Positions 40,708-64,000 of a DNA stretch of 64,000 bases are shown here, piece by piece. Position 1 is the first letter of the stretch. Each line of letters starts with the position of its first letter. The DNA is from Patescibacteria group bacterium (GTDB lineage: Bacteria; Patescibacteriota; Patescibacteriia; Patescibacteriales; UBA12465), in contig JBAZZR010000001.1 of NCBI GenBank assembly GCA_041658665.1, forward strand, positions 128,576 through 192,575, in the 5' to 3' direction. The notes beneath the pieces were generated by a model. The model saw only the letters and a program-made list of their open reading frames with translations. It ran no database searches and was not told the origin of the DNA. The position numbers were made by a program, and so were the translations under genes.

Positions 40708-40735
40708 ACATCGTGCTAGCACGAGGTACTTAAAA

Positions 40736-40761: not shown

Positions 40762-40834
40762 GTTATAAAGTCGGTTTATTAAAATTTACAAAATAGGTTT
40801 TATTTGATAAAATTATAGGTATAAAGTTTTATAT

Positions 40835-41050: not shown

Positions 41051-41054
41051 AGTT

Positions 41055-42926: not shown

Positions 42927-42936
42927 TTGAAAAACT

Positions 42937-45150: not shown

Positions 45151-45211
45151 TTATGAGAATTAATGTATCTCCAGAAGTATTATAAAATAGTAAAAAAATA
45201 AATGGAGAGAA

Positions 45212-45874: not shown

Positions 45875-45885
45875 TTAATATTATT

Positions 45886-47169: not shown

Positions 47170-47292
47170 ATGATTATACTTAATTATTAGTTAAATCTAC
47201 GCCTCCATTAATGACACACTTTTAAGCTTTTGCTAAGCAGTTAGCTGTTGGCAACTTGTCGATAACTTTCCCTTTAATATTAAAGGAAATAA

Positions 47293-48759: not shown

Positions 48760-49180
48760 ATGTATTTTTATTATTAATTATTAATTGCTCATCGGCTGGC
48801 AATAGTTTAGCCAGTTTCAAAGCGTGTTTTACTACTTCTGCTTGCGCAGGAGTTAGTTCGTCGGTATCTTCTGTTTTTGAAGTTACCTCAATCTTATCTT
48901 TAAACCTTGGATTGCGATGTCTAAGCCAAAAGCTAATCGCTGACCAGTTTTTCTCTTTGATCATCGTTAAGAGCTGGCTTTCACTCATATCGTTTACCAA
49001 AGCTTCGCCTTCGGCTAAGGCTTCATCCATTGCTTTCGAGAATTCTTTGTCCTCTCGTTTCCAGCGATAAATGCTGTTACGAGATACGCCTGATTTTTCG
49101 CAAGCAACTAGAACGATTGGTACTTTTTTGAGTTCGTTAAAGAACGCTTCTTGAAGTCTGCTTTTCTTAGACATGCTCAA
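48680..49180 (-). CDS. HTH DNA-binding protein in the terminase small subunit position
   Basis: 166 aa. GVSRNSIYRWKREDKEFSKAMDEA is an HTH-type motif, and the gene lies immediately upstream of TerL on the same strand. Confidence 0.55.
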   Translation of the reverse strand: MSMSKKSRLQEAFFNELKKVPIVLVACEKSGVSRNSIYRWKREDKEFSKAMDEALAEGEALVNDMSESQLLTMIKEKNWSAISFWLRHRNPRFKDKIEVTSKTEDTDELTPAQAEVVKHALKLAKLLPADEQLIINNKNTYDGKQNDSPGDGGTDDPRQEDKNSDN

Positions 49181-50441
49181 CCACCTCCTTTCTGCCTGTT
49201 AATTTTCGATATCTCGCTATCGCCAAATCACAGAAAACTGGCTCAAGCTCCATTGCATAAACTTTTCTCTTTAATTGTTCACCCGCTATAATCGTGCTGG
49301 CTGATCCAGAGAAAGAATCAAGGATAATGTCGCCTGGCTTGGTACAGCGCCTTATAGCCTTTTCGTAGAGCTTTGGGGGCTTGCTGGTGGCGTGTTCGTA
49401 GTCTTTGCCTGAAATACGCCTGGTAGGCCAAATATCTAAAGAATCATAGACATCTTCAAACATTTCATTACCCGTACCCAGCTCTTTATTTAAAACCTCG
49501 TTATAATTTTTAATGTCAGGATTGATGTATGGTTTGCCTTTAACACCATAGACAGCAGGTTCATAGCATTTATTAAATGCGACCTTTGGTGTTGGATTCT
49601 GTGAATTTTTAAGCCACAGACAAACCCGTTTATTAATTATTCCTAGTTCTCGATATAGTTCTTGAAATAAGCCAATGTATGTTTGGTCGCACCAGTAGAA
49701 GATATGAGTATCAGGTTTAGTGTTTGGTAGAGCGGCTAATAGGGAGTTCTTGATGAACTGCTTATATTCCTCATAACTCCTGTTGTCATTTACAGCGCCA
49801 CCATAATCGTTTTTACCACCAATACCCTTGGAATAGTCCAGCTTAATGTTATAGACAGGGTCACTAAATATCATTGAAGCCTTATCGTCGCCAAATAACC
49901 GTTTGAGATTATCGGGGTTAGTAGAATCACCACAAAGTAGGCGATGTCCGCTTAAATGTATTAGGTCGCCTGGTTTAGTTTTTGGTGTCTTTATCTTTTT
50001 TAACTCCGCCTCAACATCAAAGTCTTCGTCTTTAACTTCTAATTCCTTATCCCAGAAATGAGATAAATCGACCTGGTCAAAACCAATGTCAACCAATAGA
50101 TCTAAATCAAAAGATTTTAGCTTTTCAAAATCCCAGTCACCACCTAAAGCATTACTGGCAATTAAATATCTTTTTGCTTCATCTTCGGTTAGTTGACGAT
50201 TAGGAATTCTCACGTCAATTAGTTCTTCGCCTCTACCAAGGATTTGAAGGGCCTTAACCCGCTGGTGGCCGGCCAAAATTTTGCCATTTAAGTCGATGGC
50301 TGGAATTTCGACTAAATTAAATTTAGCCAAGCTCTTTTTAAGGTCCGACATTTGCTTGTCGTTGATTACTCTAGGGTTAACTTCTTGGGGAACCAGGTCG
50401 TTAACTTTTTTTTGCACTGTGTGCCATTCTAATTTCTTCAT
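49167..50441 (-). CDS. ParB-like nuclease domain fused to a DNA methyltransferase (phage-type orphan methylase)
   Basis: N-terminal ParB-like LAGHQRVKAL. Methyltransferase motif IV-like FSDPVYN and motif I ILDSFSGSASTIIAGE. The start is taken at the internal ATG 50441 (MKKLEWH) rather than the track start at 50519. Confidence 0.8.
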   Translation of the reverse strand: MKKLEWHTVQKKVNDLVPQEVNPRVINDKQMSDLKKSLAKFNLVEIPAIDLNGKILAGHQRVKALQILGRGEELIDVRIPNRQLTEDEAKRYLIASNALGGDWDFEKLKSFDLDLLVDIGFDQVDLSHFWDKELEVKDEDFDVEAELKKIKTPKTKPGDLIHLSGHRLLCGDSTNPDNLKRLFGDDKASMIFSDPVYNIKLDYSKGIGGKNDYGGAVNDNRSYEEYKQFIKNSLLAALPNTKPDTHIFYWCDQTYIGLFQELYRELGIINKRVCLWLKNSQNPTPKVAFNKCYEPAVYGVKGKPYINPDIKNYNEVLNKELGTGNEMFEDVYDSLDIWPTRRISGKDYEHATSKPPKLYEKAIRRCTKPGDIILDSFSGSASTIIAGEQLKRKVYAMELEPVFCDLAIARYRKLTGRKEVVEHV

Positions 50442-50605
50442 AGAATTTTTAGTTAAATTAATTAAATTATTTTTTACAAACAAAAAAGCCCATCCCACAC
50501 ATGAAACAGGCCCAGACATGAAGTCTAAGACTATTTCTTGCGCGGAATAGGCATGGCTTTTGGCGCTACTCTATTCTCTTTGCGACGCTGTTATTAGGTT
50601 TTTAA

Positions 50606-51004
50606 TTATCTTTTTTCTTTTTCAATTCGTCTATGTATTCTTCGTCCCTGTTTACTGTCCATAAATTGCGTGGCGTCCTTTCCAAGAAAAACGGGCATGT
50701 TATGAGGCACAGATATAATCACTCTTTTACCCTCTTTTTGATACTTTTCAACCATTTCTAACAGATGCGGATCATTAGTTATGTTCATCATTAGATTGAA
50801 TTCGCCATTCTTTAAATTAGTCTCTTGCTCGGGTATAGGGAATATAGCTCTTCCTGGCTCCATGGCTTCTATTTTTTTACTCATGCTTTTACCCGCAAAT
50901 TCTGGTACTCGGATGTTTGTATGTAATTGAATATCTGTGAGCTGGATGATTACATCCCCATTTTTAGGTGGTGTTTGTGCCGTTTTTATATCTAATATCT
51001 TCAT
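50606..51004 (-). CDS. Hypothetical protein, first gene of the leftward island operon
   Basis: 132-aa ORF divergent from the repressor gene. Its start lies 2-3 nt downstream of the predicted TSS of a consensus promoter. Confidence 0.6.
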   Translation of the reverse strand: MKILDIKTAQTPPKNGDVIIQLTDIQLHTNIRVPEFAGKSMSKKIEAMEPGRAIFPIPEQETNLKNGEFNLMMNITNDPHLLEMVEKYQKEGKRVIISVPHNMPVFLGKDATQFMDSKQGRRIHRRIEKEKR

Positions 51005-51013
51005 ACAAAATCA

Positions 51014-51042
51014 ATTATATATTAAGTAGTGTAAAATGTCAA
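51014..51042 (-). promoter_or_regulatory. Consensus sigma70 promoter for the leftward operon
   Basis: The minus strand reads TTGACA (51042-51037), 17 nt, TATAAT (51019-51014). The ATG is at 51004, so the transcript is nearly leaderless. Confidence 0.6.
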
Positions 51043-51053
51043 ATAGTTTGACA
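51037..51053. promoter_or_regulatory. Palindromic operator candidate
   Basis: TGTCAAA-tag-TTTGACA is a perfect 7-3-7 inverted repeat. Its left half is the -35 of the leftward promoter. Its right half is a TTGACA on the plus strand. Confidence 0.5.
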
Positions 51054-51060
51054 AAAAGAC

Positions 51061-51089
51061 TTGAAAAATAATTAATAGTGTGCTATAAT
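51061..51089 (+). promoter_or_regulatory. Sigma70 promoter for the repressor gene
   Basis: TTGAAA (51061-51066), 17 nt, TGcTATAAT (extended -10, TATAAT at 51084-51089). The ATG is at 51098, so the transcript is nearly leaderless. Confidence 0.6.
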
Positions 51090-51097
51090 TAAGACAT

Positions 51098-51736
51098 ATG
51101 AATATAATACAAACCCAATTATTAAATCTTATCGCTTCTACTCCAGAAATGGGGTCGTTCAGCCTTAGAAAGATAGCTGAATTATTAGGGGCAAAAGGAA
51201 AGCCTCAAATCGCTAAATATCATCTTCAGCAATTAGAAAAACGAGGCTTAATCCAAATGAATTTAGACGAAGGTGTGCTGAAACTAGTCCAGAAAGGATA
51301 TAATCATACCACTAAAAGTCCGTTATTTGCCATCCCAGTTGTTGGAGCAGCCAATTGTGGTCCAGCCGTCACATATGCTGATCAAAAAGTGGACAGCTAC
51401 CTAAAAATATCTTCCAGTCTTCTGCCGAGAAATAAAAATCGTTTGTTTGCCATAAAAGCCGATGGTGATTCCATGAACCGAGCAAAGATTAATGAAAAAA
51501 ATATTGAAACTGGTGATTATGTTTTAGTTGATAGAGAGGCTAGTAAGTACAGTGATGGTGATGTCGTTCTAGCTATTATCGACGGGCTGGCAACAATAAA
51601 AGAGTTTTATCCTGATAAAGCTCATAACAGAATTATATTAAAAGCTAATTCTGACCATGAGTATATGCCAATTTATATTGGTGAGGATGATCAATTTATT
51701 ATTAATGGAAAGGTCGTTGATGTAATTAAAAATTAA
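51098..51736 (+). CDS. LexA/CI-like repressor (winged-helix N-domain plus S24 peptidase domain)
   Basis: 212 aa. N-terminal KIAELLGAKGKPQIAKYHLQQLEKRGLI. C-terminal ADGDSMNRA (Ser nucleophile) and a later conserved Lys region (RIILKAN). Confidence 0.85.
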   Translation: MNIIQTQLLNLIASTPEMGSFSLRKIAELLGAKGKPQIAKYHLQQLEKRGLIQMNLDEGVLKLVQKGYNHTTKSPLFAIPVVGAANCGPAVTYADQKVDSYLKISSSLLPRNKNRLFAIKADGDSMNRAKINEKNIETGDYVLVDREASKYSDGDVVLAIIDGLATIKEFYPDKAHNRIILKANSDHEYMPIYIGEDDQFIINGKVVDVIKN

Positions 51737-51746
51737 CTATAAAAAT

Positions 51747-51962
51747 ATGAGTAACCTAAATTATTTAAGAAATGCGGGTAAGCAATGGACATCAGAAGAA
51801 GTCAAGCAACTAAAACAGCTTGCAAAAGACAATACTCCGACTAGAGTTATTGGCTTTAAGCTTGGCCGTCCAGTTGGTGGTGTGCAAAGCAAAGCCTCTG
51901 AATTAGGCGTTGGATTAAAACCAGTTAATCAATCGCCATATAATCGTACAAAAAAGAAATAA
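51747..51962 (+). CDS. Small basic hypothetical protein
   Basis: 71-aa ORF, 10 nt after the repressor gene. It is followed by a perfect 10-bp hairpin (51981-52003). Confidence 0.5.
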   Translation: MSNLNYLRNAGKQWTSEEVKQLKQLAKDNTPTRVIGFKLGRPVGGVQSKASELGVGLKPVNQSPYNRTKKK

Positions 51963-52137
51963 TTATTTGAAAATCTAAATAAGCCACCAAATTTTGGTGG
52001 CTTACTCAGGTGTTCATTGAATTAGAATTCCTTTCCCTTGGTTCTAGGTCGGTATTCAATAAAATCAGCACAGTATACTTAGTAATTGTATTGTACATGA
52101 TTTGCACCGATTATTCAAATTCTAGCATTAGACCAAT

Positions 52138-52281
52138 ATGTCCAATTCGAAGTCATTTTTACTGGGCAGGGATTCTAAAACTGGTGAGTTTATTCCTGTT
52201 GACGAAGCTCGTCGCAGACCGAATACAACTACCGTTGAAAGAGTTCCTAAGCCTGGACGCGGCGACACTGATCGAAAGTAA
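52138..52281 (+). CDS. Small ORF (47 aa) absent from the supplied track, paralogous to the C-terminal part of 52322-52744
   Basis: ATG 52138 to TAA 52279-52281 translates MSNSKSFLLGRDSKTGEFIPVDEARRRPNTTTVERVPKPGRGDTDRK. The neighbour has LLGRDSRTGEFIPVSETRRRPNTTSVERIPKPG. Differences look mostly synonymous or conservative, which supports this reading frame. Confidence 0.6.
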   Translation: MSNSKSFLLGRDSKTGEFIPVDEARRRPNTTTVERVPKPGRGDTDRK

Positions 52282-52321
52282 TAGGATTAAATCCTAAAAT
52301 AATGTTTCTGAGAATTGCTCA

Positions 52322-52744
52322 ATGGAAAGGATGAGCAGTTCTCAAAACAAATTTAAATTATATATGAAAAAGAAAAACGATATATTCTTTATCGCTTCAA
52401 AATCTGGTCGAGATAGTAATACCAGAGCTTCTTTTTATGATGAAAAAGGACACAATATTGAACATGGTGATGTAAAAATATCGTACAAATCATCAGTTAG
52501 TGGACGCTTTGTTACTAGACCTTATACAACTTTATTGGGCAGAGATTCTAGGACTGGTGAATTTATTCCAGTTAGCGAAACTCGTCGTAGACCAAACACA
52601 ACTTCTGTCGAGAGAATTCCAAAGCCTGGTTATGGTGGAAGTTCTAGAACTATTATTAAAAAAACATCAAAGAGTAAGGCGGAAAAATCAAGCCCCGTTT
52701 TTAAGGATATGAAAAAGGGTTCGTCAATTAGCTTTAAAAAATAG
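52322..52744 (+). CDS. Hypothetical basic protein carrying the GRDS-TGEFIPV...RRRPNTT-VERIPKPG motif
   Basis: 140-aa ORF. The motif is shared with the small ORF upstream. Confidence 0.65.
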   Translation: MERMSSSQNKFKLYMKKKNDIFFIASKSGRDSNTRASFYDEKGHNIEHGDVKISYKSSVSGRFVTRPYTTLLGRDSRTGEFIPVSETRRRPNTTSVERIPKPGYGGSSRTIIKKTSKSKAEKSSPVFKDMKKGSSISFKK

Positions 52745-53242
52745 ATGGAGGCCAAAGAATACAGTCTAATAATGAAGGGCATTATCCCGGCAACCCAGGA
52801 AGCTTTTAAGGGTGGGGATAAAATTGATCCAGAAGTTAGAAAAGGTGAAAAAGAGTGTGTGAAAATTTTTAAAAAAGCAGTTTCAGATTATGTCGCCAGA
52901 GACAAGCCGTCTGACTTATTTCCATCAAACGGCAAATTGTATGTGGCTATTGTTCAATTTTTTATTTCAGATAAAAAAGATTATCAACATCGTGATGTAG
53001 ATAATATGGCAAAGACTGTATTAGACGCTTTAAACCAAGGAGGATTGTATGGAGATGATAGCCAAGTTAGAACACTATTAGTTAGTAAAATAATTGATTT
53101 GAAAAAAGTTCCTCAGAATTTAGGATTTATTTATATAAAAATTTTAGACGACGGAGAAGATGAAATTTTTACCGAAAATATTATTGATCAAGCCGTCGTG
53201 ATGTATAATGATATGAGAGATAAGAATGTTGAAGTTTCATAA
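52745..53242 (+). CDS. rusA: RusA-family Holliday junction resolvase
   Basis: 165 aa. HRDVDNMAKTVLDALNQGGLYGDDSQV matches the RusA core (RRDLDNLQKAAFDAL...DDAQV in E. coli RusA). Confidence 0.8.
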   Translation: MEAKEYSLIMKGIIPATQEAFKGGDKIDPEVRKGEKECVKIFKKAVSDYVARDKPSDLFPSNGKLYVAIVQFFISDKKDYQHRDVDNMAKTVLDALNQGGLYGDDSQVRTLLVSKIIDLKKVPQNLGFIYIKILDDGEDEIFTENIIDQAVVMYNDMRDKNVEVS

Positions 53243-53984
53243 ATATATGATTTATCACGATAAAATTAATAAGAATAATGCTGTAGAATGGGAGCTTGTT
53301 GCTTTTCTTTTATATTTTATATTCTTAGTAATAACAATTTTTACTATTAAGAATTTATTAGCAGTTTTATATATACATATTGCTTTAATGATATTATTCA
53401 GTATTTATTATTTTGGTAGAGAATTATTTTATATTTTGATTGCCCCACTATTTGTAATATTGTATCCATTAAATTCTTTTCAAACTAAGAGATTTCTAAA
53501 AAAAGTTCAATTAAATAAATCTTGCCATACGGTTGTTGTGTTAGCTCATTCAAATTGGCGCAAACTTGAGGCTTGGATAAAACCGAATTTTAATGTTAGT
53601 GAGATAAAATTATTATATAAATATTTAAAAAAGAGAGGTGATGATTTTTCTTTTTACCCAAAAGCAACACTGGATGACGTGAATGATTTAATGGCTGATC
53701 CTAACATAAAAGAGATTTATTTCTATGGTCATGGGTCATCACATGTTTTTCAGCTAGGCACAGGAGAATATCTTTATTACTGTGAATTTAGTAATGGTAA
53801 ATACGAAAAAGATTTTGTTCATCAAATGCATTGTGGCACAGAAGATGGTAAAAGCTTAGTTGATTATGTTGTGCCAGATAAAAATAAAAAGGAATGTTTT
53901 TGGGTTAAAAAATCTATTACGGGTCCATATATAGAAAAGATTCTAAAGAAAAAAATAAAAGAAATTGGCAAGGACAAAGTATAA
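53226..53984 (+). CDS. Hypothetical membrane protein with a soluble C-terminal domain
   Basis: 252 aa. Three N-terminal hydrophobic segments. The C-terminal domain contains IYFYGHGSSH and later Cys residues (YYCEF, QMHCGTEDG). Confidence 0.55.
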   Translation: MLKFHKYMIYHDKINKNNAVEWELVAFLLYFIFLVITIFTIKNLLAVLYIHIALMILFSIYYFGRELFYILIAPLFVILYPLNSFQTKRFLKKVQLNKSCHTVVVLAHSNWRKLEAWIKPNFNVSEIKLLYKYLKKRGDDFSFYPKATLDDVNDLMADPNIKEIYFYGHGSSHVFQLGTGEYLYYCEFSNGKYEKDFVHQMHCGTEDGKSLVDYVVPDKNKKECFWVKKSITGPYIEKILKKKIKEIGKDKV

Positions 53985-54029
53985 AATTAACGAAATTTGG
54001 AAACAATTTTCTATTATTAAAATAAATAT

Positions 54030-55004
54030 ATGTTCAAAAAAAATTTAAATAAAATACCTAAGGATATTATTGAAAAAATTAGTCGCATAGAAGGCAATAA
54101 TATAATAGTTGGCTGTGCAAAGAAATTTAAAGCAGATTATTTATCATCTGGTGGCCTTAATCATTTAGGAATATTTTTAAATGATAGCGGTCTTACATTC
54201 CCTGCGAGTATTATTCCTTCTGCGGAACAGGGAAAATACTCTGGCAGAAACATTTACGGTTATGAAGAAATTCGCAAGGATCTTCCCAAAGAGACTCATT
54301 ATAATAGCGTAGAATCTCCTAACTATGGTGATTCATACAATGGTACTCACACAGTGAATCTTCCTTATGAAAAATACCCAAGAGATTTTCACTCACCAAA
54401 AGAATTAGAAATTTTGATAAATTGTGAAAACGGTCGACCAGGCTTACAAGAATATGTTATTACTTTTCAGGTTCAAGAAATTATCAATAAAGATGATGAA
54501 AAATTTAATTCTAGCTTACTTGAAAATCTGAATATTTTACAAGAAAATATTGGATTTTGTGATATTGAGTCAGCAGATACGCCAATGGAAGAATATGCAA
54601 AATCATTACATGTTTCTTGGGAAATATTACCACCAGGCACGGCCGACGAAGCAATTGAAAGAATATTCCGTGGTAAAACACCAACACAGCAACAAAAAGA
54701 TACAACAAAAGAGAGGTATGATTTTTTTCAATTGCTTAAACCAAAAAGTTTTGTTTTTGGTCAGAGTGGTTTTAGGAGATACTTTGGAGCACTTTTAGAG
54801 GATGATTTAGTTGTTTTTGAAAATATTGAATATGGTAACGCTGTGTATATTTTATATGATAACTGGGAAGAGCTTAGTAAACTCACTCGTTTAGATTTAA
54901 TGTCTGGTAGGTTTGGTGATTCATTCGAAAGAGTAATACATAATTCTGGCTGGAAGGGTAAGGTTAGGACAATTATTGCTCATAGACGAGAATTAGGATC
55001 TTAA
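54030..55004 (+). CDS. Hypothetical protein (last island gene)
   Basis: 324-aa ORF. No motif recognised. Confidence 0.6.
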   Translation: MFKKNLNKIPKDIIEKISRIEGNNIIVGCAKKFKADYLSSGGLNHLGIFLNDSGLTFPASIIPSAEQGKYSGRNIYGYEEIRKDLPKETHYNSVESPNYGDSYNGTHTVNLPYEKYPRDFHSPKELEILINCENGRPGLQEYVITFQVQEIINKDDEKFNSSLLENLNILQENIGFCDIESADTPMEEYAKSLHVSWEILPPGTADEAIERIFRGKTPTQQQKDTTKERYDFFQLLKPKSFVFGQSGFRRYFGALLEDDLVVFENIEYGNAVYILYDNWEELSKLTRLDLMSGRFGDSFERVIHNSGWKGKVRTIIAHRRELGS

Positions 55005-55181
55005 TCCAAAGATTACATTATCTTGTAACCTTTTTCTTTATTGTCGTGTCACTTTTGTCACTTTTAAGAAAAACCATAGCGCACGAGGATCTTATTTATT
55101 AAAGCCTCAAAAAATCACCGAAAAGCCTTGCTGGGCTTGCCGAAATAACGGTTCCAGCCCGAGGTAGCCCGCTAACAAAAA

Positions 55182-55203
55182 AGACCCAACCTGCGTTGGG
55201 TCT
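55182..55203. terminator. Bidirectional hairpin terminator inside the island right end
   Basis: Perfect 9-bp stem AGACCCAAC / GTTGGGTCT, loop ctgc, flanked by AAAAAA and TTTTTT. Confidence 0.7.
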
Positions 55204-55211
55204 TTTTTGTT

Positions 55212-55335
55212 AATGTTGAGGTTCGGAAGAGATTCGAAAGCCGGAGGCGATGCGCACTTGTGCGCCGCCGAGGCCGGGTCGGGGCGCTTGCTTTTCGCCG
55301 AGCGAAGCGAAAGTGAAAAGCTTAGCGACCGTGAC
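55212..55335. other. GC-rich, hairpin-rich non-coding segment at the island right end (possible structured RNA or recombination site region)
   Basis: Composition contrasts sharply with the A/T-rich surroundings. Hairpins: GGCG-at-GCGCA-cttg-TGCGC-CGCC (about 55246-55269) and GCTTTTC...GAAAAGC (55290-55296 / 55315-55321). Only low-complexity ORFs overlap it on both strands. Confidence 0.3.
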
Positions 55336-55355
55336 CGAATCCCTTCCTCTCCGCA
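55336..55355 (+). repeat. attR-side copy of the 20-bp direct repeat
   Basis: CGAATCCCTTCCTCTCCGCA is identical to 40688-40707. Upstream sequence does not continue the tRNA T-stem. Confidence 0.9.
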
Positions 55356-55363
55356 GTTTGTAA

Positions 55364-55388
55364 ATAGCCCTAAACATGGGCTATTTTT
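55364..55388 (+). terminator. Displaced original tRNA-Ser terminator
   Basis: ATAGCCC-taaacat-GGGCTAT followed by TTTT, 8 nt after the attR repeat. Confidence 0.65.
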
Positions 55389-55392
55389 AATA

Positions 55393-55426
55393 GGAGGTTT
55401 ATCACTTTGGAACGTCATGCTATAAT
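55393..55426 (+). promoter_or_regulatory. Promoter-like motif copy 1 (GGAGGTTTAT-N18-TATAAT)
   Basis: GGAGGTTTATCAC...TATAAT (55421-55426), 20 nt upstream of ATG 55447. Copies at 60576 and 62106 have the same spacing. Confidence 0.5.
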
Positions 55427-55446
55427 ATTAACATAAATATTTATAT

Positions 55447-56055
55447 ATGAAAAAAAAGATTATTTTATTTTTACTACTATCGATTATTCTTATAGCTGAA
55501 GTATATTATTTATTCGCCAAAGGTGATTTTAAAATTACTAATAATTCTATTGAATTTTTTCAGGGTAGTATAACTAGTAGAGATGAAGAAAATAAAATAT
55601 CCGGACTAACAAGTTTAAATGAATCTAAGACAGATCCTAAAACTGGAGTTACTTCCATTTCAGTTGAAGAGGGCTCTCTTTTTATAGAGCCTATTGAATT
55701 AACTCTGCACGATCGAAAGGTTTATTTTGTAAATAAAAGTGACAATAGAACAATCTCAATTCCCATAAATAAACCTACTAACTCGCAGATTACACCAGCC
55801 ATAAGTAACCCGTATATAAAATACCCATTTGTATTTTTTGCGTTTATTGATTTTATAAATACTAATAAGACTGATTATACAATTTTAGTTTATAACTTAA
55901 CCTCACAAAAAGAAACATTTCTTGATGTAGTGACTTGTAAAGGAGCTTTTATAACAGATGTTGCCTATAATGATGGTATTCTATATTGGAGCCAATATAA
56001 AACATGGTCTGATTCTTGCTCGGGAAATTTTAAGAAAAAAGTTAACTTAGACTAA
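55447..56055 (+). CDS. Hypothetical secreted/membrane-anchored protein
   Basis: 202 aa. N-terminal MKKKIILFLLLSIILIAEVYYLFA signal/anchor. Confidence 0.6.
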   Translation: MKKKIILFLLLSIILIAEVYYLFAKGDFKITNNSIEFFQGSITSRDEENKISGLTSLNESKTDPKTGVTSISVEEGSLFIEPIELTLHDRKVYFVNKSDNRTISIPINKPTNSQITPAISNPYIKYPFVFFAFIDFINTNKTDYTILVYNLTSQKETFLDVVTCKGAFITDVAYNDGILYWSQYKTWSDSCSGNFKKKVNLD

Positions 56056-56070
56056 TACTTCTATTAAAAA

Positions 56071-56100
56071 TCGTTCCAACTACGTCCCCCACTCTCCGCA
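56071..56100 (+). repeat. Degenerate tRNA-Ser 3'-end-like remnant (copy A)
   Basis: CGTTCCAACTACGTCCCCCACTCTCCGCAG. Its last 17 nt match the 3' end of tRNA-Ser(TGA) (63930-63947) at 15/17 positions by my alignment. It is 24/30 identical to the copy at 60509-60538 and is followed by a hairpin terminator. Confidence 0.55.
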
Positions 56101-56108
56101 GATTAAAA

Positions 56109-56131
56109 ATCGCCAATTTGGCGATTTTTTG
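56109..56131 (+). terminator. Hairpin terminator
   Basis: ATCGCC-aattt-GGCGAT followed by TTTTT. Confidence 0.6.
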
Positions 56132-56209
56132 TTATAATTTTTGTATAATTATGCCATTATAATATTTCAAACTAATTATAGTTAATATAATTAGGCATAC
56201 TATTTTATT

Positions 56210-57916
56210 ATGAAAGTTTTTACTTTTAAGATTGGTGGACCAGCTGGAGCCGGCATCACTTCAGCCGGTCTGATGTTTTCTAAAATTGCCGCCCGTTCTG
56301 GCTATTACGTTTTTGATTATATGGAATATCCTTCCATTATTCGTGGTGGTCATAACGTGATGCAGACTAGTGTTTCCGATGAACCGATTGCTACTCAGTT
56401 GCAGTCGACGGAATTTTTGGTGGCGCTTAATCAGGAAACTGCTGATCGTCATGTTGGTGAGTTGGCTAAGTCTGGTGTCATGCTTTATGATACGGACGAA
56501 AATATTGTAGTCAAAAAAGTGCCGACAGGAGCAATAGCGCTTGGTTTGCCTTTACATAACTTGGCCAAGCGTAGCGCTGGTAACATTATTGTTATTAATA
56601 CCGTCGCCCTAGGAGCATCTTTATATCTATTAGGAGGAGATTTAAAATATTTGCAAGATTTATTGAGTGAACAATTTCTTGAAAAGGGCGAGAAAGTATT
56701 ACGACAAAATCTTAATGCTGCTTCTCTTGGATTTAAATATGCTCAAGATAATTTTTCAAAATATATTACATTGCGTTTGACTAAGCGTAAAGGGAAGTCA
56801 CCCGCTCTGGTTATCAACGGGAATGAAGCTGCAGCTTTAGGATCTATTGCCGCTGGTCTGCAATTTGCTTCAATTTATCCAATGACCCCAACTTCCAATA
56901 TTTTACAGATATTGGCACCGCTCCAACAAGAATTTGGTTTTATTTATAAACAGCCGGAAGACGAGATTTCTGCTATCAACATGGCCATTGGCGCTTCGTT
57001 TGCTGGGGCGAGAGCGATGACTGCGACTTCGGGCGGCGGTTTTTGTTTGATGGCTGAGGGCTTAGGGCTCGCTGGTATGACGGAAACTCCAGTTGTAATT
57101 ATTGTTGGACAACGCCCCGAGCCAGCTACTGGTTTGCCGACTTGGACTGAACAGGGTGATCTCCGCTTTGTTTTACATGCGCACCAAGGCGATTTTCCGC
57201 GCCTAGTATTAGCCCCTGGAGATGTTACGGAAACTTTTCACTTAACCATGCAAGCTTTTAATTTGGCGGACAAATATCAGACACCAGTAGTAGTTTTGAT
57301 TGATAAACAGATTTGCGAAGGTCATGAAGGCGTGTCTCCTTTTAATTATGCTAAATATAGAGTTGATCGTGGCAAGTTTACGACTAAAAAGGTGGCTAAT
57401 TATAAGCGCTATGCTTTGAATACAGATGGAATATCTCGTCGCGCTCCGGCTGGTTCTGGGAATCATGTCATTGCCAACTCTGATGAACATACGGTTTTTG
57501 GTTATTCTTCCGAAGAGAGCTCTGTGCGCCAAGAGCAGATGAAAAAACGGATGCAGAAATTAATTACTTGTGAACAAAAAGATATGCCTGCGCCGACTCT
57601 GTATGGCCCGGCAAAAGCGGATTTAACTATTGTGTCTTGGGGCAGCAATAAAGGTGCAATTTTGACTGCTTTAAAAGAATGTCCGGGAGTTAACTTTTTA
57701 CATCTAACTTGGCTCAACCCCTTTCCAACAGCAGCCGTGGCTAAGATTTTAGGAAAAGCTAAAAAAGTTTTGAATATTGAAGCTAATTATACTGGTCAAT
57801 TGGGTGGTTTAATTACGGAAAAGACTGGCTTGGTTTTAGAGCATAATTTTTTAAAGTATGACGGCCGCCCTTTCTATCCTGAGGAGATTATTAATAAAGT
57901 TAAAGAATTATTATGA
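56210..57916 (+). CDS. 2-oxoacid:ferredoxin/flavodoxin oxidoreductase, fused gamma-alpha subunit
   Basis: 568 aa. N-terminal gamma-type domain (GGPAGAGITSAGLMFSKIAARSG), then an alpha domain (INGNEAAALGSIAAGLQFASIYPMTPTS). The ATGA overlap with the beta gene indicates coupling. Confidence 0.85.
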   Translation: MKVFTFKIGGPAGAGITSAGLMFSKIAARSGYYVFDYMEYPSIIRGGHNVMQTSVSDEPIATQLQSTEFLVALNQETADRHVGELAKSGVMLYDTDENIVVKKVPTGAIALGLPLHNLAKRSAGNIIVINTVALGASLYLLGGDLKYLQDLLSEQFLEKGEKVLRQNLNAASLGFKYAQDNFSKYITLRLTKRKGKSPALVINGNEAAALGSIAAGLQFASIYPMTPTSNILQILAPLQQEFGFIYKQPEDEISAINMAIGASFAGARAMTATSGGGFCLMAEGLGLAGMTETPVVIIVGQRPEPATGLPTWTEQGDLRFVLHAHQGDFPRLVLAPGDVTETFHLTMQAFNLADKYQTPVVVLIDKQICEGHEGVSPFNYAKYRVDRGKFTTKKVANYKRYALNTDGISRRAPAGSGNHVIANSDEHTVFGYSSEESSVRQEQMKKRMQKLITCEQKDMPAPTLYGPAKADLTIVSWGSNKGAILTALKECPGVNFLHLTWLNPFPTAAVAKILGKAKKVLNIEANYTGQLGGLITEKTGLVLEHNFLKYDGRPFYPEEIINKVKELL

Positions 57917-58767
57917 CTTGGCAAGATTATTTAACGCCCAATAAATGTAATTGGTGTTCAGGTTGTGGCAATTTCAGCATCTGGTCGGCTTTTGAGCGCG
58001 CCGCTTTAAAAGCGGGCTGGAATAATTCCAATACGGCTTTAGTGGCTGGTATTGGTTGTCACGGACACATTGTTAATTTTATTGGTTTAACTACCTTTGA
58101 GGGTTTACATGGTCGTCCAATCCCAGTTGCCTCTGGTTTGAAGATGGCTAATCATAAATTAAATGTTTTTGTCTTTACTGGCGACGGCGATTGCTTAGCA
58201 GAAGGTGGTAATCATTTTATTCACGCGGCACGCAGAAATCAGAATATTACTGTGATCATTCATGATAATGCCATCTATGGATTGACCGCCGGTCAGGCTT
58301 CACCACGTTCGCCCAAAGGATTGAAAACAAAATCAACGCCGGATGGTAATATCGAGGAGCCCATCCATCCTTTACGCCTGGCACTAGCGGCCGGAGCAAC
58401 TTTCTTGGCTCGAGTCTATGCCGGGAATATTGATGAATGTACCGATATTCTTATTAAGGCTAATAAACATGACGGCTTGGCGGTTGTCCAGATTTTACAA
58501 CCCTGTGTTACTTTTAATAAAGAATATAGCCATATCTTTTATCAAGAGAATACTTATGCGCTTGGCGATGATTATGACGCAACCGATAAAGTCGCCGCTT
58601 TTGTTAAAACTATGGAATGGGGAGCCAAGCAGATTCCCGTGGGGATTCTTTACCAAGTTCAGGAGCCAAGCTATGAAAGTCAGATACCACAGCTTCAAAA
58701 ACGTGCCTTAGTCGCGACCGCTGCCCAAAAACAAAATATTAGCAAAGTCTTAAAAAAATATTTATGA
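57913..58767 (+). CDS. 2-oxoacid:ferredoxin/flavodoxin oxidoreductase, beta (TPP-binding) subunit
   Basis: 284 aa. CNWCSGCGNFSI near the N-terminus and the TPP motif FTGDGDCLAEGGNH. Confidence 0.85.
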   Translation: MTWQDYLTPNKCNWCSGCGNFSIWSAFERAALKAGWNNSNTALVAGIGCHGHIVNFIGLTTFEGLHGRPIPVASGLKMANHKLNVFVFTGDGDCLAEGGNHFIHAARRNQNITVIIHDNAIYGLTAGQASPRSPKGLKTKSTPDGNIEEPIHPLRLALAAGATFLARVYAGNIDECTDILIKANKHDGLAVVQILQPCVTFNKEYSHIFYQENTYALGDDYDATDKVAAFVKTMEWGAKQIPVGILYQVQEPSYESQIPQLQKRALVATAAQKQNISKVLKKYL

Positions 58768-59228
58768 GCAAAAAGATTATTATCATCTATGCCAGTAATT
58801 CCGGATCTACTTTTTTAGTTGGCGAGATAATCGCTCATATTTTGGGTCGTAAACATCAAGTAGTTATGCAAAAGGCCGCGGATACTAGTCCAGATGATTT
58901 GTTAAAATATGATATTTTTATTCTTGGTTCGCCAAGTTGGAGTACGCCTGGCCTCGGAGAGGGTTTCCCTCAGGAAACAATGCTCGCTTTTATAAAGAGT
59001 TGTGCCGGTTTAGATTTATCTGGAAAACAGTGTGTAGCTTTCGGCTGTGGCGATTCTTCTTATACTTTATTTTGCGGGGCGGTTAATCAATTAGAAAAAT
59101 TTATGGCTGATTTAAAAGGCACCCGACTTATAAATTCTTTGCGCGTTGACGGCTATTTTTTTGATCTTCCAAAAAATATTGCCTTGGTAAAAAAATGGGC
59201 ACAGGCGCTATTAGCTCATATTTCTTAA
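58764..59228 (+). CDS. Flavodoxin
   Basis: 154 aa. N-terminal KIIIIYASNSGSTFLVGE (flavodoxin FMN-phosphate loop), later GSPSW and FGCGDSSY. ATGA overlap with the beta subunit gene. Confidence 0.8.
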   Translation: MSKKIIIIYASNSGSTFLVGEIIAHILGRKHQVVMQKAADTSPDDLLKYDIFILGSPSWSTPGLGEGFPQETMLAFIKSCAGLDLSGKQCVAFGCGDSSYTLFCGAVNQLEKFMADLKGTRLINSLRVDGYFFDLPKNIALVKKWAQALLAHIS

Positions 59229-59278
59229 TGTATTCGTTTTCTCTGATTTAACAGAACGACGTGATATAATAAAAATAG

Positions 59279-59887
59279 ATGAAATTAATTAAATATATAA
59301 CCAGGAATTATAAATTAAGAGATCATGTATTGATTGTCCAGTCTTTATATAAGAAAAATACTTCAATTCCGGAAATATACTATACCAATGTTGCCGATGT
59401 ATCTGTTAAAGGGCTAATGGATATATATATTGGACAGTTGGATTCCCAAAGTAATGTAAAAAGGTTACAAAAAGTTATTAATCAGCCTGGTTATATATCT
59501 AATAAAATTAAAGAAGGAGAGATTGCTGTTAAAAATTTGTATGATTTGCCCCTAAATTTAAAAAATAAAATCCCCACGCTTAGTAAAAGAGAAATTATAA
59601 AAATCATAAAAGAAGTAAGAAAAAGATTGTTTGAATTCGGAGGCTTTTTTGAATTTACTCATTATATTGGAAGAACAAATGTAAAGTTAACTCTGGTACA
59701 GATTAAAAAGTTAGGCAGTTTTCATGATCGTCGGAAGGATGCGTTTTTAAATAGTTTTAATTTTTTAAATATTCTTTTTGAAAAGACATTGAAGAATACT
59801 AAAATTGTTAATAAAAAATTGAATTTTTTAACTGTCGAAGAGATTATAGATTATTTTAATGGCCAGTATGAAAAATTTAAAATATAA
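59279..59887 (+). CDS. Hypothetical protein, possible truncated relative of the N-domain of the swivel paralogs
   Basis: 202 aa. SFHDRRKDAFLNSFNFLNILFEKTLKNTKIVNKKLNFLTVEEI aligns with identical spacing to paralog 5 (VWQDERKALIFKNISYTGFVLKELARRLKKPLEYFCYLSLSEV). It has no swivel His domain. Confidence 0.5.
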   Translation: MKLIKYITRNYKLRDHVLIVQSLYKKNTSIPEIYYTNVADVSVKGLMDIYIGQLDSQSNVKRLQKVINQPGYISNKIKEGEIAVKNLYDLPLNLKNKIPTLSKREIIKIIKEVRKRLFEFGGFFEFTHYIGRTNVKLTLVQIKKLGSFHDRRKDAFLNSFNFLNILFEKTLKNTKIVNKKLNFLTVEEIIDYFNGQYEKFKI

Positions 59888-60452
59888 ATCAGGCTTACCC
59901 GCTAATGCCAAGCTTGTCTTTACCGGAAAAATTTTTGAAATTTGGCAATGGGAACAAGAAATGTTTGATGGGACCAAGCAAATTTTTGAAAAAGTCTGGC
60001 GGGAACCAGGTGTAGAGATAATTGCTACTGTTGGAGATAAAATTATTATTGAGGATCAAGATCAGCCGGATCGTAAAAATACGATTAGTCTACCAAGTGG
60101 TCGTGCCGACCAGAGTGAAAATTTGCTGGCTGAGGCTAAAAGAGAATTGTTAGAAGAAACCGGTTATTCCTCAGAAGATTGGGTTGAACTTTTTAAATTT
60201 TGTCGAGATTCTAAGGTTCTTCACGAGGTCCAGGTTTTCGTCGCGCGTAATTGTCAAAAAATTCAAGATTTACAGCTGGACGCAGGTGAAAAGATAGAAA
60301 CTAGGCTTATAACTTTTGAAGAGTTGATTAATTTAACAGAGGAGCCGCGTTTTTGGGTGGCCCCAGAATTCATAAGTTTTCTATTAAGACTTCAAATTAG
60401 TAAACAAAAAAGGGAAGAATTCAGAAAGCTGCTTTTTTCGGATAAAGCTTAA
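59859..60452 (+). CDS. NUDIX hydrolase
   Basis: 197 aa. Perfect Nudix box GRADQSENLLAEAKRELLEETGY (Gx5Ex7REUxEExGU). Confidence 0.85.
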   Translation: MASMKNLKYKSGLPANAKLVFTGKIFEIWQWEQEMFDGTKQIFEKVWREPGVEIIATVGDKIIIEDQDQPDRKNTISLPSGRADQSENLLAEAKRELLEETGYSSEDWVELFKFCRDSKVLHEVQVFVARNCQKIQDLQLDAGEKIETRLITFEELINLTEEPRFWVAPEFISFLLRLQISKQKREEFRKLLFSDKA

Positions 60453-60508
60453 AGTATTGTAATTAAGAAACTATATCAATCGGATTTGACAGAAGTAAAA
60501 TCTAAAAC

Positions 60509-60538
60509 CGTTCCAACTGCGTTCCACCCTCTTCGCGG
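60509..60538 (+). repeat. Degenerate tRNA-Ser 3'-end-like remnant (copy B)
   Basis: CGTTCCAACTGCGTTCCACCCTCTTCGCGG. Its last 17 nt match the tRNA-Ser(TGA) 3' end at 14/17 positions by my alignment. It is followed by a weak hairpin plus T-run and a promoter motif. Confidence 0.5.
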
Positions 60539-60575
60539 ATTAAGACAGTTCTAATATTAGGGCTGTTTTTTAGTA

Positions 60576-60609
60576 GGGAGTTTATCACCGTAGAAAGGAG
60601 TGATATAAT
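60576..60609 (+). promoter_or_regulatory. Promoter-like motif copy 2 (GGGAGTTTAT-N18-TATAAT)
   Basis: GGGAGTTTATCAC...TATAAT (60604-60609), 6 nt before ATG 60616. Confidence 0.5.
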
Positions 60610-63859: not shown

Positions 63860-63946
63860 GGAGAGGTGCCAGAGCGGTCGAATGGAACAGTCTTGAAAAC
63901 TGTCGTCGGTGCAAGCCGACCGTGGGTTCGAATCCCACCCTCTCCG
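63860..63946 (+). tRNA. tRNA-Ser (anticodon TGA), class II
   Basis: 87 nt. GGAGAGG acceptor stem, anticodon arm ACAGT-CTTGAAA-ACTGT, long variable arm, T-arm GTGGG-TTCGAAT-CCCAC, 3' strand CCTCTCC plus G. Confidence 0.9.
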
Positions 63947-64000
63947 CAGAGACAAATTAGCATTAAGCTAATCAAGTATATAATAAAATCTATATGAGAT

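Follow-up and report, generated by a model that had tools for sequence, protein, structure and literature searches.

Sites resembling tRNA-Ser 3′ ends in a Patescibacteria contig are probably attR-type scars of serine recombinase-driven cassette and island integration

Sequences that resemble the 3′ end of tRNA-Ser recur downstream of an island in this Patescibacteria contig, each followed by a hairpin and a promoter-like site, and the question is what left them there. The original prediction, made on the window, which is the whole stretch of 64,000 nt analysed here, read them as tandem accretion of older islands at tRNA-Ser att sites followed by decay of the repeats, or else as a reused tRNA-like 3′ processing or termination module. 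The features of the window are the following.

40615..40706, + strand: tRNA-Ser(gct), head of array 1, a tRNA-type ("B-type") site (ARAGORN, Rfam)
40707..55146, no strand assigned: island A, an integrative element with left end AACATCGTGCTAGCACGAGG (Pfam)
45886..47169, - strand: large serine recombinase (LSR) gene, with Resolvase, Recombinase and Zn-ribbon domains
55147..55172, + strand: possible decayed element AACGGTTCCAGCCCGAGGTAGCCCGC, from a weak alignment with the L058, L099 and L104 copies
55173..55355, + strand: GC-rich unit of G2 type, 183 nt, 79% identical over 153 nt to metagenome copies
55356..55430, + strand: "(a)-type" cassette left end (promoter scan match at 55399-55426; metagenome parallels)
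55447..56055, + strand: sole gene of cassette B, 202 aa with an N-terminal hydrophobic segment
56067..56099, + strand: E1, P-type element AAAATCGTTCCAACTACGTCCCCCACTCTCCGC, 28/30 against the family consensus
56105..56138, + strand: terminator hairpin and overlapping promoter-like site, preceding the oxidoreductase operon
56210..60452, + strand: block C, oxidoreductase operon region (Pfam)
60504..60536, + strand: E2, P-type element AAAACCGTTCCAACTGCGTTCCACCCTCTTCGC, 26/30 against the family consensus
60537..60609, + strand: degenerate "(a)-type" module after E2, with hairpin, T-run, GGGAGTTTATCAC and TATAAT (aligned with the attR flank)
63860..63947, + strand: tRNA-Ser(tga), head of array 2 (ARAGORN; locus L006, same ENA contig)

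The observation behind the prediction is confirmed, apart from small numerical slips. The segment 55336-55355 (CGAATCCCTTCCTCTCCGCA) is indeed an exact tRNA-Ser copy, identical at 20/20 positions to 40688-40707, which covers the 3′ terminus of tRNA-Ser(gct) and one base beyond it. E1 and E2 share the reported 24/30 positions when 56072-56101 is set in register with 60509-60538, while 56071-56100 gives 10/30, so the start first assigned to E1 was off by one. Their last 17 nt do resemble tRNA-Ser(tga), at 14/17 positions for E1 and 13/17 for E2 and not at the 15/17 and 14/17 given before. With up to three mismatches, CCCACCCTCTCCGCAG matches five places in the window, all on the + strand (both tRNA-Ser genes, the attR copy, E1 and E2), against 0.06 expected from shuffles, and CGTTCCAACTRCGTYCC matches E1 and E2 only (0.22 expected; 1/100 shuffles gave two). 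A profile HMM, trained on 84 independent metagenome copies of the element, gives 31.1 bits for E1 (E = 2e-8) and 28.0 bits for E2 (E = 2e-7), with no other significant match over the 64 kb. The similarity to tRNA-Ser, on which the original prediction depended, is thus above chance. Neither ARAGORN nor Rfam reports a tRNA at E1, E2 or the attR copy.

By their sequence, E1 and E2 are diverged members of a family of ~33-nt putative recombination-site elements with the consensus A-N-N-A-Y-CGTTCCAACTACG-TCCCACCCTCTCCGC. The element is found in >100 distinct contexts on low-GC Patescibacteria metagenome contigs, and a 20-base pattern search gives 74 copies on 65 metagenome contigs of 29-44% GC. Conservation in 57 non-redundant copies spans positions -5 to +27 and ends exactly at the tRNA 3′ end. 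The 5′ half is not decayed tRNA sequence but a non-tRNA arm that is strongly conserved, is constant as far as position -5 and contains a T-loop-like motif, GTTC(C/G)AA. An arm of this kind, in which the motif is shifted relative to the tRNA, indicates that E1 and E2 come from element-borne att sites and not from copies of the host tRNA. Chance likeness, or duplicated tRNA-Ser genes decaying in place, would fit the mere 13-14/17 positions at which E1 and E2 match the tRNA, but is scarcely credible given the shuffle and profile values above and >100 independent copies with the same non-tRNA arm, none of which has upstream tRNA sequence. This explanation was rejected on the shuffles, the 74-copy pattern search, the conservation profile and the HMM scores together.

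The family is linked to tRNA-Ser. In ~20 loci the element is preceded, on its own strand, by a tRNA-Ser gene (anticodon tga, cga, gga or gct), which is never found on the opposite strand. Up to 10 co-oriented sites per locus form arrays, mostly 0.4-1.5 kb apart, in which each site closes a mostly single-gene, co-oriented cassette; the longest ORF lies on the array strand in 68/70 cassettes, with a median of 200 aa. The cargo consists of diverse accessory enzymes, such as methyltransferases, GNAT, HAD, Fic, DJ-1, SDR and others, and most cassettes have no recombinase gene. It is at the element that related contigs part. L062 and L071 agree through one cassette as far as ...CTCTCCGCAG and differ after it. 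A two-cassette block of 1.77 kb, 98.4% identical between L073 and L121, has a tRNA-Ser before it in one locus and a P element in the other, with different cassettes after it. No free (circular) attP was found, and the viral collection holds no element copies.

The genome of the window has two copies behind tRNA-Ser(gct) and 5-6 P-type copies behind tRNA-Ser(tga). The latter follow shortly after the window ends and, in window numbering, stand at 64441, 65024, 66217, 66935, 67806 and 68491 (partial). The common context described for the three tRNA-like ends was located as well: extended -10 promoter-like sites are at 55399-55426, 56110-56138 and 60582-60609 by promoter scan, the terminator scan flags 56105-56129 only, and the hairpin and T-run after the attR copy and after E2 are seen in the sequence, unflagged by that scan. 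At the (a)-type left end the order is terminator hairpin, GGAGGTTTATCAC, TTTGGAACG and TATAAT, where TTTGGAACG (55407-55414) is an inverted copy of the element's CGTTCCAA; this module stands behind 22 distinct P-type and 5 G-type ends in the metagenome loci.

Elements that always lie between stop codon and terminator hairpin on the coding strand, with a 3′ half identical to the tRNA-Ser 3′ strand, could also act at the RNA level, as a tRNA-like tag at the 3′ end of cassette mRNAs that serves their processing, stability or termination. This alternative, which the original prediction had kept beside accretion, is very improbable: the acceptor/T-stem strand has no partner, the subtypes have no conserved pairing in common, neither tRNA nor Rfam matches occur, the profile HMM finds zero copies in the first 55 kb of the window despite dozens of gene ends, the linkage to tRNA-Ser and LSR genes is strict, and the breakpoints between related contigs coincide with the element.

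The segment 55336-55355 belongs to another structure than the one proposed. It had been called the exact attR of the island, and is instead the 3′ end, tRNA-Ser(gct)-identical and unshifted, of a separate 183-nt GC-rich unit, which is found elsewhere without the island. The unit begins with a palindromic terminator-like hairpin (55173-55213), followed by a GC-rich structured core (55214-55335). G2-type copies occur in L058, L069, L108 and L112, all in other contexts (79% over 153 nt), and the sister G1 family has strong covariation; the unit family has no match in Rfam. GC-rich units match the resident tRNA from the T-loop onward in the window and in L118, L088, L104, L065, L068 and L091. The segment 55147-55172, which is below significance in the profile HMM search, stands where other GC-rich units show a proper ...CTCTCCGC end, and island A proper may end at this possible decayed element.

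The left end of island A directly meets the 3′ end of tRNA-Ser(gct). The island encodes a Type III restriction-modification module, the LSR, a terminase-like gene, a DNA methyltransferase, an S24 repressor and RusA (Pfam). LSR genes with Resolvase, Recombinase and Zn-ribbon domains also lie 250-500 nt past the tRNA-type end, antiparallel, in L113, L058, L094, L119 and L080, and are 35-49% identical to the window LSR. The window LSR has >120 homologues at 89-98% identity across Patescibacteria bins. In six further independent loci, selected through the protein alone, a window-type LSR (96% identical) is at tRNA-Ser(gct) with an identical junction, ...CTCTCCGC/AACATCGTGCTAGCACGAGGTA. The left arm characteristic of the LSR genes in L113, L058, L094, L119 and L080 follows tRNA ends in 3/18 distinct contexts and P ends in 0/107. 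The unit at the right end of the window island has no shifted motif; this, and an identity of only 35-49% between the window LSR and those of the P-type arrays, speaks against the LSR reading favoured below.

The spacing of the T-loop-like motif separates the two kinds of site. The motif is separated from CTCTCCGC by 7 nt in 19 distinct tRNA-Ser genes and by 12 nt in 91 distinct elements, with 10, 11 or 13 nt in 7 elements only (11 nt in 5 of them), and the motif is thus 5 bp further out in the element than in the tRNA. The 12-nt spacing is kept across subtypes with unlike spacers (CTACG, GTGCG, TAGCG, TATAA and TATGG). In LSR sites the ZD motif occupies bp 16-24 in attP and bp 11-19 in attB (PMC3783163), so the 5-bp shift matches the half-site difference published for these enzymes and would place the crossover at CCCTC/TCCGC. 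Independently of that rule, 40 pairs with the same downstream and different upstream flank have element differences at positions 0-11 and 16-21 and zero differences at positions 22-27. Against LSR sites it must be said that the right-hand halves, at the left ends of cassettes and islands, have no inverted motif copy at the canonical distance, so that the quasi-symmetry which LSR att sites usually show is missing.

The sites could also be tRNA-Ser recombination scars of another enzyme, a tyrosine integrase or other recombinase encoded elsewhere, which would recognise the shared core and recombine any two sites in an integron- or lox-like manner, the 5-bp shift being incidental. The region from the T-loop onward, over which the GC-rich units are identical to the resident tRNA, is the classic crossover region for T-loop-targeting tyrosine integrases; the scarcity of recombinase genes in cassettes, the asymmetry of right against left halves and the integron-like arrays of co-oriented single-gene cassettes point the same way. 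This reading is nevertheless unlikely. LSR genes are the sole recombinases seen beside the sites, and Phage_integrase is absent both from the most frequent Pfam families in 125 large ORFs of the 65 loci and from the individually scanned island ORFs (4 from L113 and L094, 16 from the window island). The 5-nt spacer length is held despite varied sequences, which a core-only recombinase would not need, and the element has no attC-like inverted repeat.

E1 and E2 are therefore best read as attR-type scars from LSR-driven integration of cassettes and islands at tRNA-Ser 3′ ends in tiny bacteria of the candidate phyla radiation, which we consider probable. The tRNA linkage, the arrays, the junctions at the element and the adjoining LSRs agree with the tandem accretion first proposed; its account of repeat decay and its exact attR are wrong or incomplete in detail. 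The left part, A-N-N-A-Y-CGTTCCAA with the 5-nt spacer, would be an element-borne "P" half-site, and the right part, TCCCACCCTCTCCGC, the sequence common to the T-stem and acceptor 3′ strand of tRNA-Ser. The enzyme is most likely an LSR, whose zinc-ribbon domain would recognise two versions of the motif: GGTTCGAA of the tRNA T-loop, at attB spacing, and the similar CGTTCCAA of the element, placed 5 bp outward, at attP spacing. Strand exchange would take place within ...C/TCCGC. Repeated insertion at the tRNA-type end would shift older cassettes distally, so that the units, all in one orientation, would follow the gene in the order tRNA-Ser, cassette-P, cassette-P and so on. The window array would then run tRNA-Ser(gct), island A, GC-rich unit, cassette B-E1, block C-E2, in which E1 and E2 would be the oldest and most eroded sites, and a fresher second array would begin at tRNA-Ser(tga).

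To our knowledge, canonical LSRs do not recombine attP with attL, so re-insertion at an occupied tRNA would need a relaxed right half or GC-rich units serving as fresh attB-type sites. Since most cassettes have no recombinase, their mobilisation would have to be in trans. The 202-aa protein of cassette B has no Pfam match. Block C may formerly have been mobile and encodes the alpha and beta subunits of a 2-oxoacid:ferredoxin oxidoreductase, a flavodoxin, a 202-aa protein and a NUDIX protein. Its oxidoreductase operon has the look of core metabolism, and in the relative L100 this operon lies 1.7 kb past the array end, without flanking elements. Among the close relatives compared, the variable presence of the 55.36-56.10 and 56.10-60.54 kb blocks was not demonstrated.

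The integration principle is known, and as far as could be found the dense cassette arrays and the structured GC-rich element have no earlier description. Nearest to it among described systems are the Dehalococcoides ssrA islands, SCCmec and the tycheposons. The ssrA islands follow a tRNA-like gene in tandem, and each is delimited by a ~20-bp direct repeat of the target's 3′ end with a conserved ~15-bp non-target motif just upstream; the large serine recombinase DsiB, which is CcrB-like, is on the reverse strand beside attL, and some islands without a recombinase are thought to be cis-mobilisable (McMurdie et al. 2011, PMC3146451). The present system shares the LSR by attL on the reverse strand, the tandem units and the non-target motif before the direct repeat. 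It differs in its host, Patescibacteria, in its target, which is tRNA-Ser of four isoacceptors and not tmRNA, in its mostly single-gene cassettes of 0.4-1.5 kb instead of multi-kb islands, in a non-tRNA motif readable as a T-loop look-alike shifted by 5 bp, and in its interspersed GC-rich structured units.

SCCmec and SCC composite islands lie at rlmH (orfX) and are moved by the serine recombinases CcrAB or CcrC. On the present reading, both systems use a serine recombinase to enter a housekeeping gene at its 3′ end; both form tandem composite arrays split by short direct repeats, with many units that lack recombinase genes; SCCmec has a protein-coding target, large units and no tRNA mimicry. 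This comparison draws on general knowledge and on the discussion in PMC3146451. In serine-integrase attP/attB pairs (Rutherford et al. 2013, PMC3783163), both partners have the same short motif, and the element-borne partner has it 5 bp more distant from the crossover. A shifted common motif and a zinc-ribbon LSR encoded beside the site are found here too, but the rule applies to the left half-site only, the right halves are asymmetric, and attL-like targets would have to be tolerated for array growth.

Tycheposons of Prochlorococcus are cargo-carrying elements at specific tRNA genes, including tRNA-Ser(tga), in which newcomers push older elements inward and leave partial-tRNA repeats and degraded remnants, and 910/937 have tyrosine recombinases (Hackl et al., bioRxiv 10.1101/2020.12.28.424599). 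Insertion at specific tRNA genes and, on the present reading, displacement of older elements by newer ones are common to both, whereas here LSRs are seen and the arrays are dense, with single-gene cassettes each closed by a well-conserved site. As in integrons, the cassettes are co-oriented and mostly single-gene, carry small accessory enzymes and are closed by a recombination site, and the array is headed by a fixed site beside a recombinase gene. Unlike integrons, no IntI-type tyrosine recombinase and no folded attC are found here, many cassettes have their own terminator and promoter, and the head site is a tRNA gene.

The window contains two tRNA-Ser genes, and behind the first of them the genes are arranged in blocks that end in sequences similar to the 3' end of tRNA-Ser. 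The island that abuts tRNA-Ser(gct) is followed by a GC-rich unit, by a cassette with a 202-aa gene that closes with the tRNA-like element E1, by a block that extends from the 2-oxoacid:ferredoxin oxidoreductase operon to NUDIX and closes with the element E2, and by a transglutaminase-like gene preceded by a module similar to the common left end of cassettes, here called the (a) module. The operon includes flavodoxin, 202-aa and NUDIX genes. The ends of these units are located at 40706, 55354, 56099 and 60536, and a second array starts from 63947, which is the succession expected from tandem accretion. The tRNA genes were located with ARAGORN, and the main features are:

40615-40706, plus strand: tRNA-Ser(gct), heading array 1
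40707 to about 55150: island of 14.6 kb, with a Type III restriction-modification module, a large serine recombinase (LSR), a terminase-like protein, a DNA methyltransferase, an S24 repressor and RusA
45886-47169, minus strand: LSR gene, with Resolvase, Recombinase and Zn-ribbon domains
55147-55172: decayed element-like sequence AACGGTTCCAGCCCGAGGTAGCCCGC, preceding the GC-rich unit
55173-55355: GC-rich unit of 183 nt, whose 3' end is the 20-nt repeat
56067-56099: E1
60504-60536: E2
60616-61113: transglutaminase-like gene
63860-63947, plus strand: tRNA-Ser(tga), heading array 2
minus strand: tRNA-Arg(gcg)

The 20-nt sequence at 55336-55355, described in the original prediction as an exact attR copy, is indeed identical to 40688-40707. 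The 24/30 identity between E1 and E2 holds with E1 placed at 56072-56101, one base from the start first proposed, and the similarity of their last 17 nt to tRNA-Ser(tga) is real, with counts of 14/17 for E1 and 13/17 for E2 that are slightly under those predicted. This similarity exceeds chance, as the 16-mer CCCACCCTCTCCGCAG with up to three mismatches has five matches, all on the plus strand, against 0.06 expected, and the non-tRNA half of the element occurs within the window only at E1 and E2. Promoter-like sites were found by a promoter scan after all three ends, as had been proposed; of the hairpins said to accompany them, the terminator scan flagged only the one after E1, the other two being visible in the sequence. 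ARAGORN and Rfam (E <= 10) gave no tRNA or pseudo-tRNA match at E1, at E2 or at the 20-nt copy with its unit (55173-55355).

These shared ends had been read in two ways, as tandem accretion of islands at tRNA-Ser or as a reused module for RNA processing or termination. The search for further copies, in which occurrence at many gene ends would speak for a terminator-associated motif, returned additional ones that are tied to tRNA-Ser, and none at the many gene ends of the first 55 kb of the window. The second reading is left without support, and tandem accretion proved essentially right, on the basis of the family linkage, arrays and junction polymorphism described below.

The window belongs to a Patescibacteria genome, its sequence is also present on an 822-kb ENA contig (ERZ27247322 k141_157777), and its relatives are Patescibacteria bins. 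A 20-base pattern built from E1 and E2 recovered 74 copies in 65 metagenome contigs with 29-44% GC. The consensus of 57 non-redundant copies is A-N-N-A-Y-CGTTCCAACTACGTCCCACCCTCTCCGC, and in these copies the conservation starts abruptly at position -5 and stops exactly at the tRNA-Ser gene end, with unrelated flanks on both sides. The last 17 nt of the consensus are the 3' end of the tRNA-Ser(tga) of the window. E1 matches the consensus at 28/30 positions and E2 at 26/30. With a profile from 84 copies, E1 reaches 31 bits and E2 28 bits (E about 1e-8 to 1e-7), and the rest of the 64 kb gives no significant match. When the loci were scanned for any ...CTCTCCGC end, more subtypes with this design appeared, distinguished chiefly by the 5 nt that separate their halves (GTGCG, TAGCG, TATAA and TATGG, with a 4-nt variant AAAC); no internal inverted repeat of the kind expected of attC is conserved across the subtypes. 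A viral origin was considered and rejected: three IMG/VR scans gave only chance matches to a 15-base pattern, and the longer P2-type and G-type patterns had zero matches there.

In the approximately 20 loci of sufficient extent, the elements lie downstream of a tRNA-Ser gene (tga, cga, gga or gct) and on its strand, and in none is the gene on the opposite strand. The elements form co-oriented arrays of up to 10 sites per locus, spaced mostly by 0.4-1.5 kb. Of the 70 non-redundant segments between sites, 68 carry their longest ORF on the array strand; the median ORF length is 200 aa, and the cassette products are mixed small accessory enzymes. The second array of the window has five to six elements directly behind tRNA-Ser(tga), in the 7 kb past the window end (L006 13317-17876, equivalent to window positions 63932-68491). 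It is better preserved than array 1, one of its elements is the exact consensus, and each element closes one gene, the cassette genes being glyoxalase, GNAT, PEP-utiliser, S51 peptidase and SDR, followed by RelB/ParE and Ham1. At L064 (296-8690) and L090, a tRNA-Ser(tga) gene lies inside the array with element-type (P-type) sites on both sides, and it may be cassette cargo or mark the meeting of two abutting arrays.

The order and presence of units vary among family loci with breakpoints at the repeats. L062 and L071 have a cassette in common up to ...CTCTCCGCAG and diverge beyond it. L073 and L121 have in common a 1.77-kb two-cassette block (98.4% identity); a tRNA-Ser(gga) lies ahead of it in one locus and a P element in the other, and the cassettes behind it differ. 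L060 and L075 carry one cassette that lies once behind a tRNA gene and once behind an element. Left-end modules found behind tRNA-Ser genes are also found behind elements, such as the (a) module, which is composed of a terminator, GGGAGTTTATCAC, TTTGGAACG and TATAAT and is present in the window after 55355 and, in degenerate form, after E2. The elements are therefore identified, with high confidence, as recombination-site scars at tRNA-Ser.

Within the window itself, exact-protein look-ups for the 202-aa block with E1 and for the oxidoreductase-to-NUDIX block with E2 returned only near-identical strains, in which the arrangement is unchanged. In a locus whose operon is 57-80% identical (L100), the operon is located 1.7 kb past the array end without flanking elements, and more distant oxidoreductase homologues (L001 and L002, 67-69% identity, from the nearest GTDB genomes) have different neighbours and no element. 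The transglutaminase-like gene lies in a different run of small genes in each relative, with few surviving elements, and in one relative it lies 3 kb behind tRNA-Ser(tga) with one element surviving. The sets of neighbours in L130, L132 and L134 are NYN, cupin, GNAT and HD; GrpB and a methyltransferase; and NUDIX and Exo_endo_phos. This gene behaves like a cassette whose sites are mostly eroded, and its contexts fit arrays that erode at their older sites, a process begun in E1 and E2.

The 20-nt repeat taken for attR is the 3' end of the 183-nt unit at 55173-55355, in which a long palindromic hairpin resembling a terminator is followed by a GC-rich core and then by an unshifted end similar to tRNA-Ser. 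Copies with 79% identity are found in other contigs and contexts without the island, and the arrays often contain members of a larger sister family, G1 (about 170 nt), the window unit belonging to the G2 subfamily. Units of the two subfamilies, of 130-215 nt and each with an unshifted mimic of the tRNA-Ser 3' end as its terminus, are located as follows:

window 55173-55355
L080 8259-8472 and 10336-10549
L067 2277-2486
also in L058, L065, L066, L068, L074, L075, L088, L091, L092, L102 and L118

They always lie behind a tRNA-Ser or a P element, and their 3' ends often match the resident tRNA-Ser in its T-stem/acceptor variant. One such unit, in L080, has an LSR island directly behind it. Other units are preceded by a proper ...CTCTCCGC end, and that of the window by the decayed sequence at 55147-55172, where the right end of the island may actually lie.

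In an alignment of 12 G1 copies there are 34 consensus pairs, with compensatory changes in 24 of them; pairing is kept in 88.5% of cells, compared with 68% for shuffles and about 41% for slid controls. The observed covariation was reached by none of 500 shuffles. Since AAGGGATT of the first helix pairs with AATCCCTT, the unit looks like a tRNA-Ser T-arm and acceptor 3' strand with a structured T-loop insertion of approximately 140 nt. Rfam has no match to it in the window (E <= 10) or in six loci (E <= 1), and it is well supported as a structured element, one with no known family. It may be the gene of an RNA, a structure formed by single-stranded DNA or a portable site of attB type. Other identities were rejected. 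To be a TnpB/IscB-style guide RNA, a bridge RNA, a tmRNA piece, an intron-bearing tRNA or a primer-binding site, it lacks an associated protein, an acceptor 5' strand, an anticodon arm and an Rfam match; and as a single-strand origin of rolling-circle LSR elements the unit would be expected behind the island end, where it is found in just two of five LSR islands.

The candidate enzyme for these sites is the LSR. In L113, L058, L094, L119 and L080, LSR genes (Resolvase, Recombinase, zinc-ribbon) lie antiparallel at 250-500 nt past the tRNA-type end, and in four of these five a rolling-circle Rep (ORF2/G2P-RepSA type) comes next. The LSR of the window has more than 120 homologues with 89-98% identity across many Patescibacteria bins. 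In six loci picked by the window-type LSR protein alone (L123-L129), the island abuts tRNA-Ser(gct), the left end AACATCGTGCTAGCACGAGGTA is common to them and the window island, and the LSR gene lies 8-9 kb from the tRNA; the module between the two is swapped, being Type III restriction in the window and Type I in these loci. The left arm of LSR islands is found behind tRNA-type ends in 3 of 18 distinct contexts, and behind P-type ends in 0 of 107.

Some side observations concern these LSR genes. L113 (4510-10538), L058, L089 and L094 are integrative elements of 5-8 kb at tRNA-Ser. Their products are an LSR of 490 aa, a rolling-circle Rep (PF23343, RepSA-like) and a conserved protein of approximately 315 aa with no Pfam match, and the elements resemble miniature pSAM2-like integrative replicons. 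Some records of window-LSR homologues carry archaeal or other-phylum labels, which may be due to mis-binning. Directly 5' of the window LSR start codon (47161-47244, minus strand), a weak Rfam match to RAGATH-27 (27.8 bits, E = 5) is probably due to chance.

The element itself can be read as a serine integrase site. The GTTC(C/G)AA in its non-tRNA half is a look-alike of the T-loop GTTCGAA, and this motif stands 7 nt from CTCTCCGC in 19 distinct tRNA-Ser genes but 12 nt from it in 91 distinct elements, the spacing being 10, 11 or 13 nt in only seven elements (11 nt in five of the seven). In serine integrases the zinc-ribbon motif lies 5 bp further out in attP (bp 16-24) than in attB (bp 11-19) (PMC3783163), and the same 5-bp offset is found here, in the left half-site only. 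This spacing applied to the elements predicts a crossover between CCCTC and TCCGC. In 40 element pairs that agree in the downstream but not in the upstream flank, the mismatches fall at positions 0-11 and 16-21 and none at 22-27. This independent comparison places the breakpoint 3' of position 21, somewhere within the last six bases (22-27), which are invariant.

Other points weigh against the LSR. The right half has no quasi-symmetry, as neither the LSR-island left arms (ATTGAAGAAAAATCGCT...) nor the (a) modules have a TTGGAAC-like motif at +16 to +24, and no convincing dyad symmetry surrounds the predicted crossover. An inverted AACCGTTCCAA (read as TTGGAACGGTT) does lie approximately 55-65 nt after the junction in (a) modules and may be a second site for the recombinase or for a regulator; within the cassette promoter it falls between the -35-like box and the -10 box, for example at window 55405-55414, at L006 15655-15665 and in many (a) modules in L058-L122. 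IMG/VR scans found no free attP, and most cassettes would have to be mobilised in trans. Canonical LSRs are not known to accept attL as a target, and an extra assumption is therefore needed for the arrays to grow. A tyrosine recombinase acting in trans could conceivably have made the sites instead, and would be compatible with cassettes that lack their own enzyme; neither a tyrosine recombinase nor IntI figures in the 25 Pfam families most frequent in 125 large ORFs of the loci or among the island ORFs scanned individually. Given the weak points of the LSR model, the identification as scars at tRNA-Ser carries high confidence and the proposal that an LSR made them moderate confidence.

These results can be joined in a tentative model, possible rather than probable, of a tRNA-Ser-anchored cassette platform driven by a serine recombinase, in which GC-rich units keep the arrays open. 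Such a platform would be a functional analogue of the integron built from different parts, in Patescibacteria. Single-gene cassettes, each with its own terminator-promoter module and 33-bp P-site, would be inserted and shuffled at tRNA-Ser 3' ends, and the GC-rich units would be portable mimics of these ends that re-create an attB-type site, or would encode a tRNA-like RNA, thereby keeping the array open to further insertion.

Patescibacteria, the candidate phyla radiation, have tiny genomes, and the mechanisms of gene exchange characterised so far in these bacteria are, to our knowledge, few. The arrays would be a concrete route by which they gain and shuffle accessory genes. The signature of a tRNA-Ser followed by repeated 33-nt elements can be used to recognise the flexible part of genomes in metagenome bins and to detect contigs that were mis-binned. 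The natural half-sites of attB and attP type, in which the 5-bp offset is fixed while the spacers vary, are a ready test set for the serine-integrase site-recognition model and a source of compact tRNA-targeting integrases.

Among known systems, the Dehalococcoides ssrA islands agree point for point with the anatomy of this family. These islands are in tandem behind a tRNA-like gene, have a 20-bp repeat after a conserved 15-bp motif that is absent from ssrA, and carry a CcrB-like LSR on the reverse strand beside attL, while their recombinase-less units are thought to be cis-mobilisable (PMC3146451). The arrays are also similar to SCC composite islands and to tycheposons, in which older elements are pushed distally at tRNA genes including tRNA-Ser(tga), although tycheposon enzymes are mostly tyrosine recombinases (bioRxiv 10.1101/2020.12.28.424599). 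Integrons are defined by an IntI-type tyrosine recombinase beside the array and by attC, an imperfect inverted repeat folding in single-stranded DNA; the elements lack such a repeat. Full-text literature searches found no description of such arrays in Patescibacteria. Three aspects appear new, namely the host group with its target, how densely single-gene cassettes are packed in an integron-like manner, and the structured GC-rich unit; a fourth is that the "non-tRNA" arm can be read as a T-loop look-alike at attP spacing.
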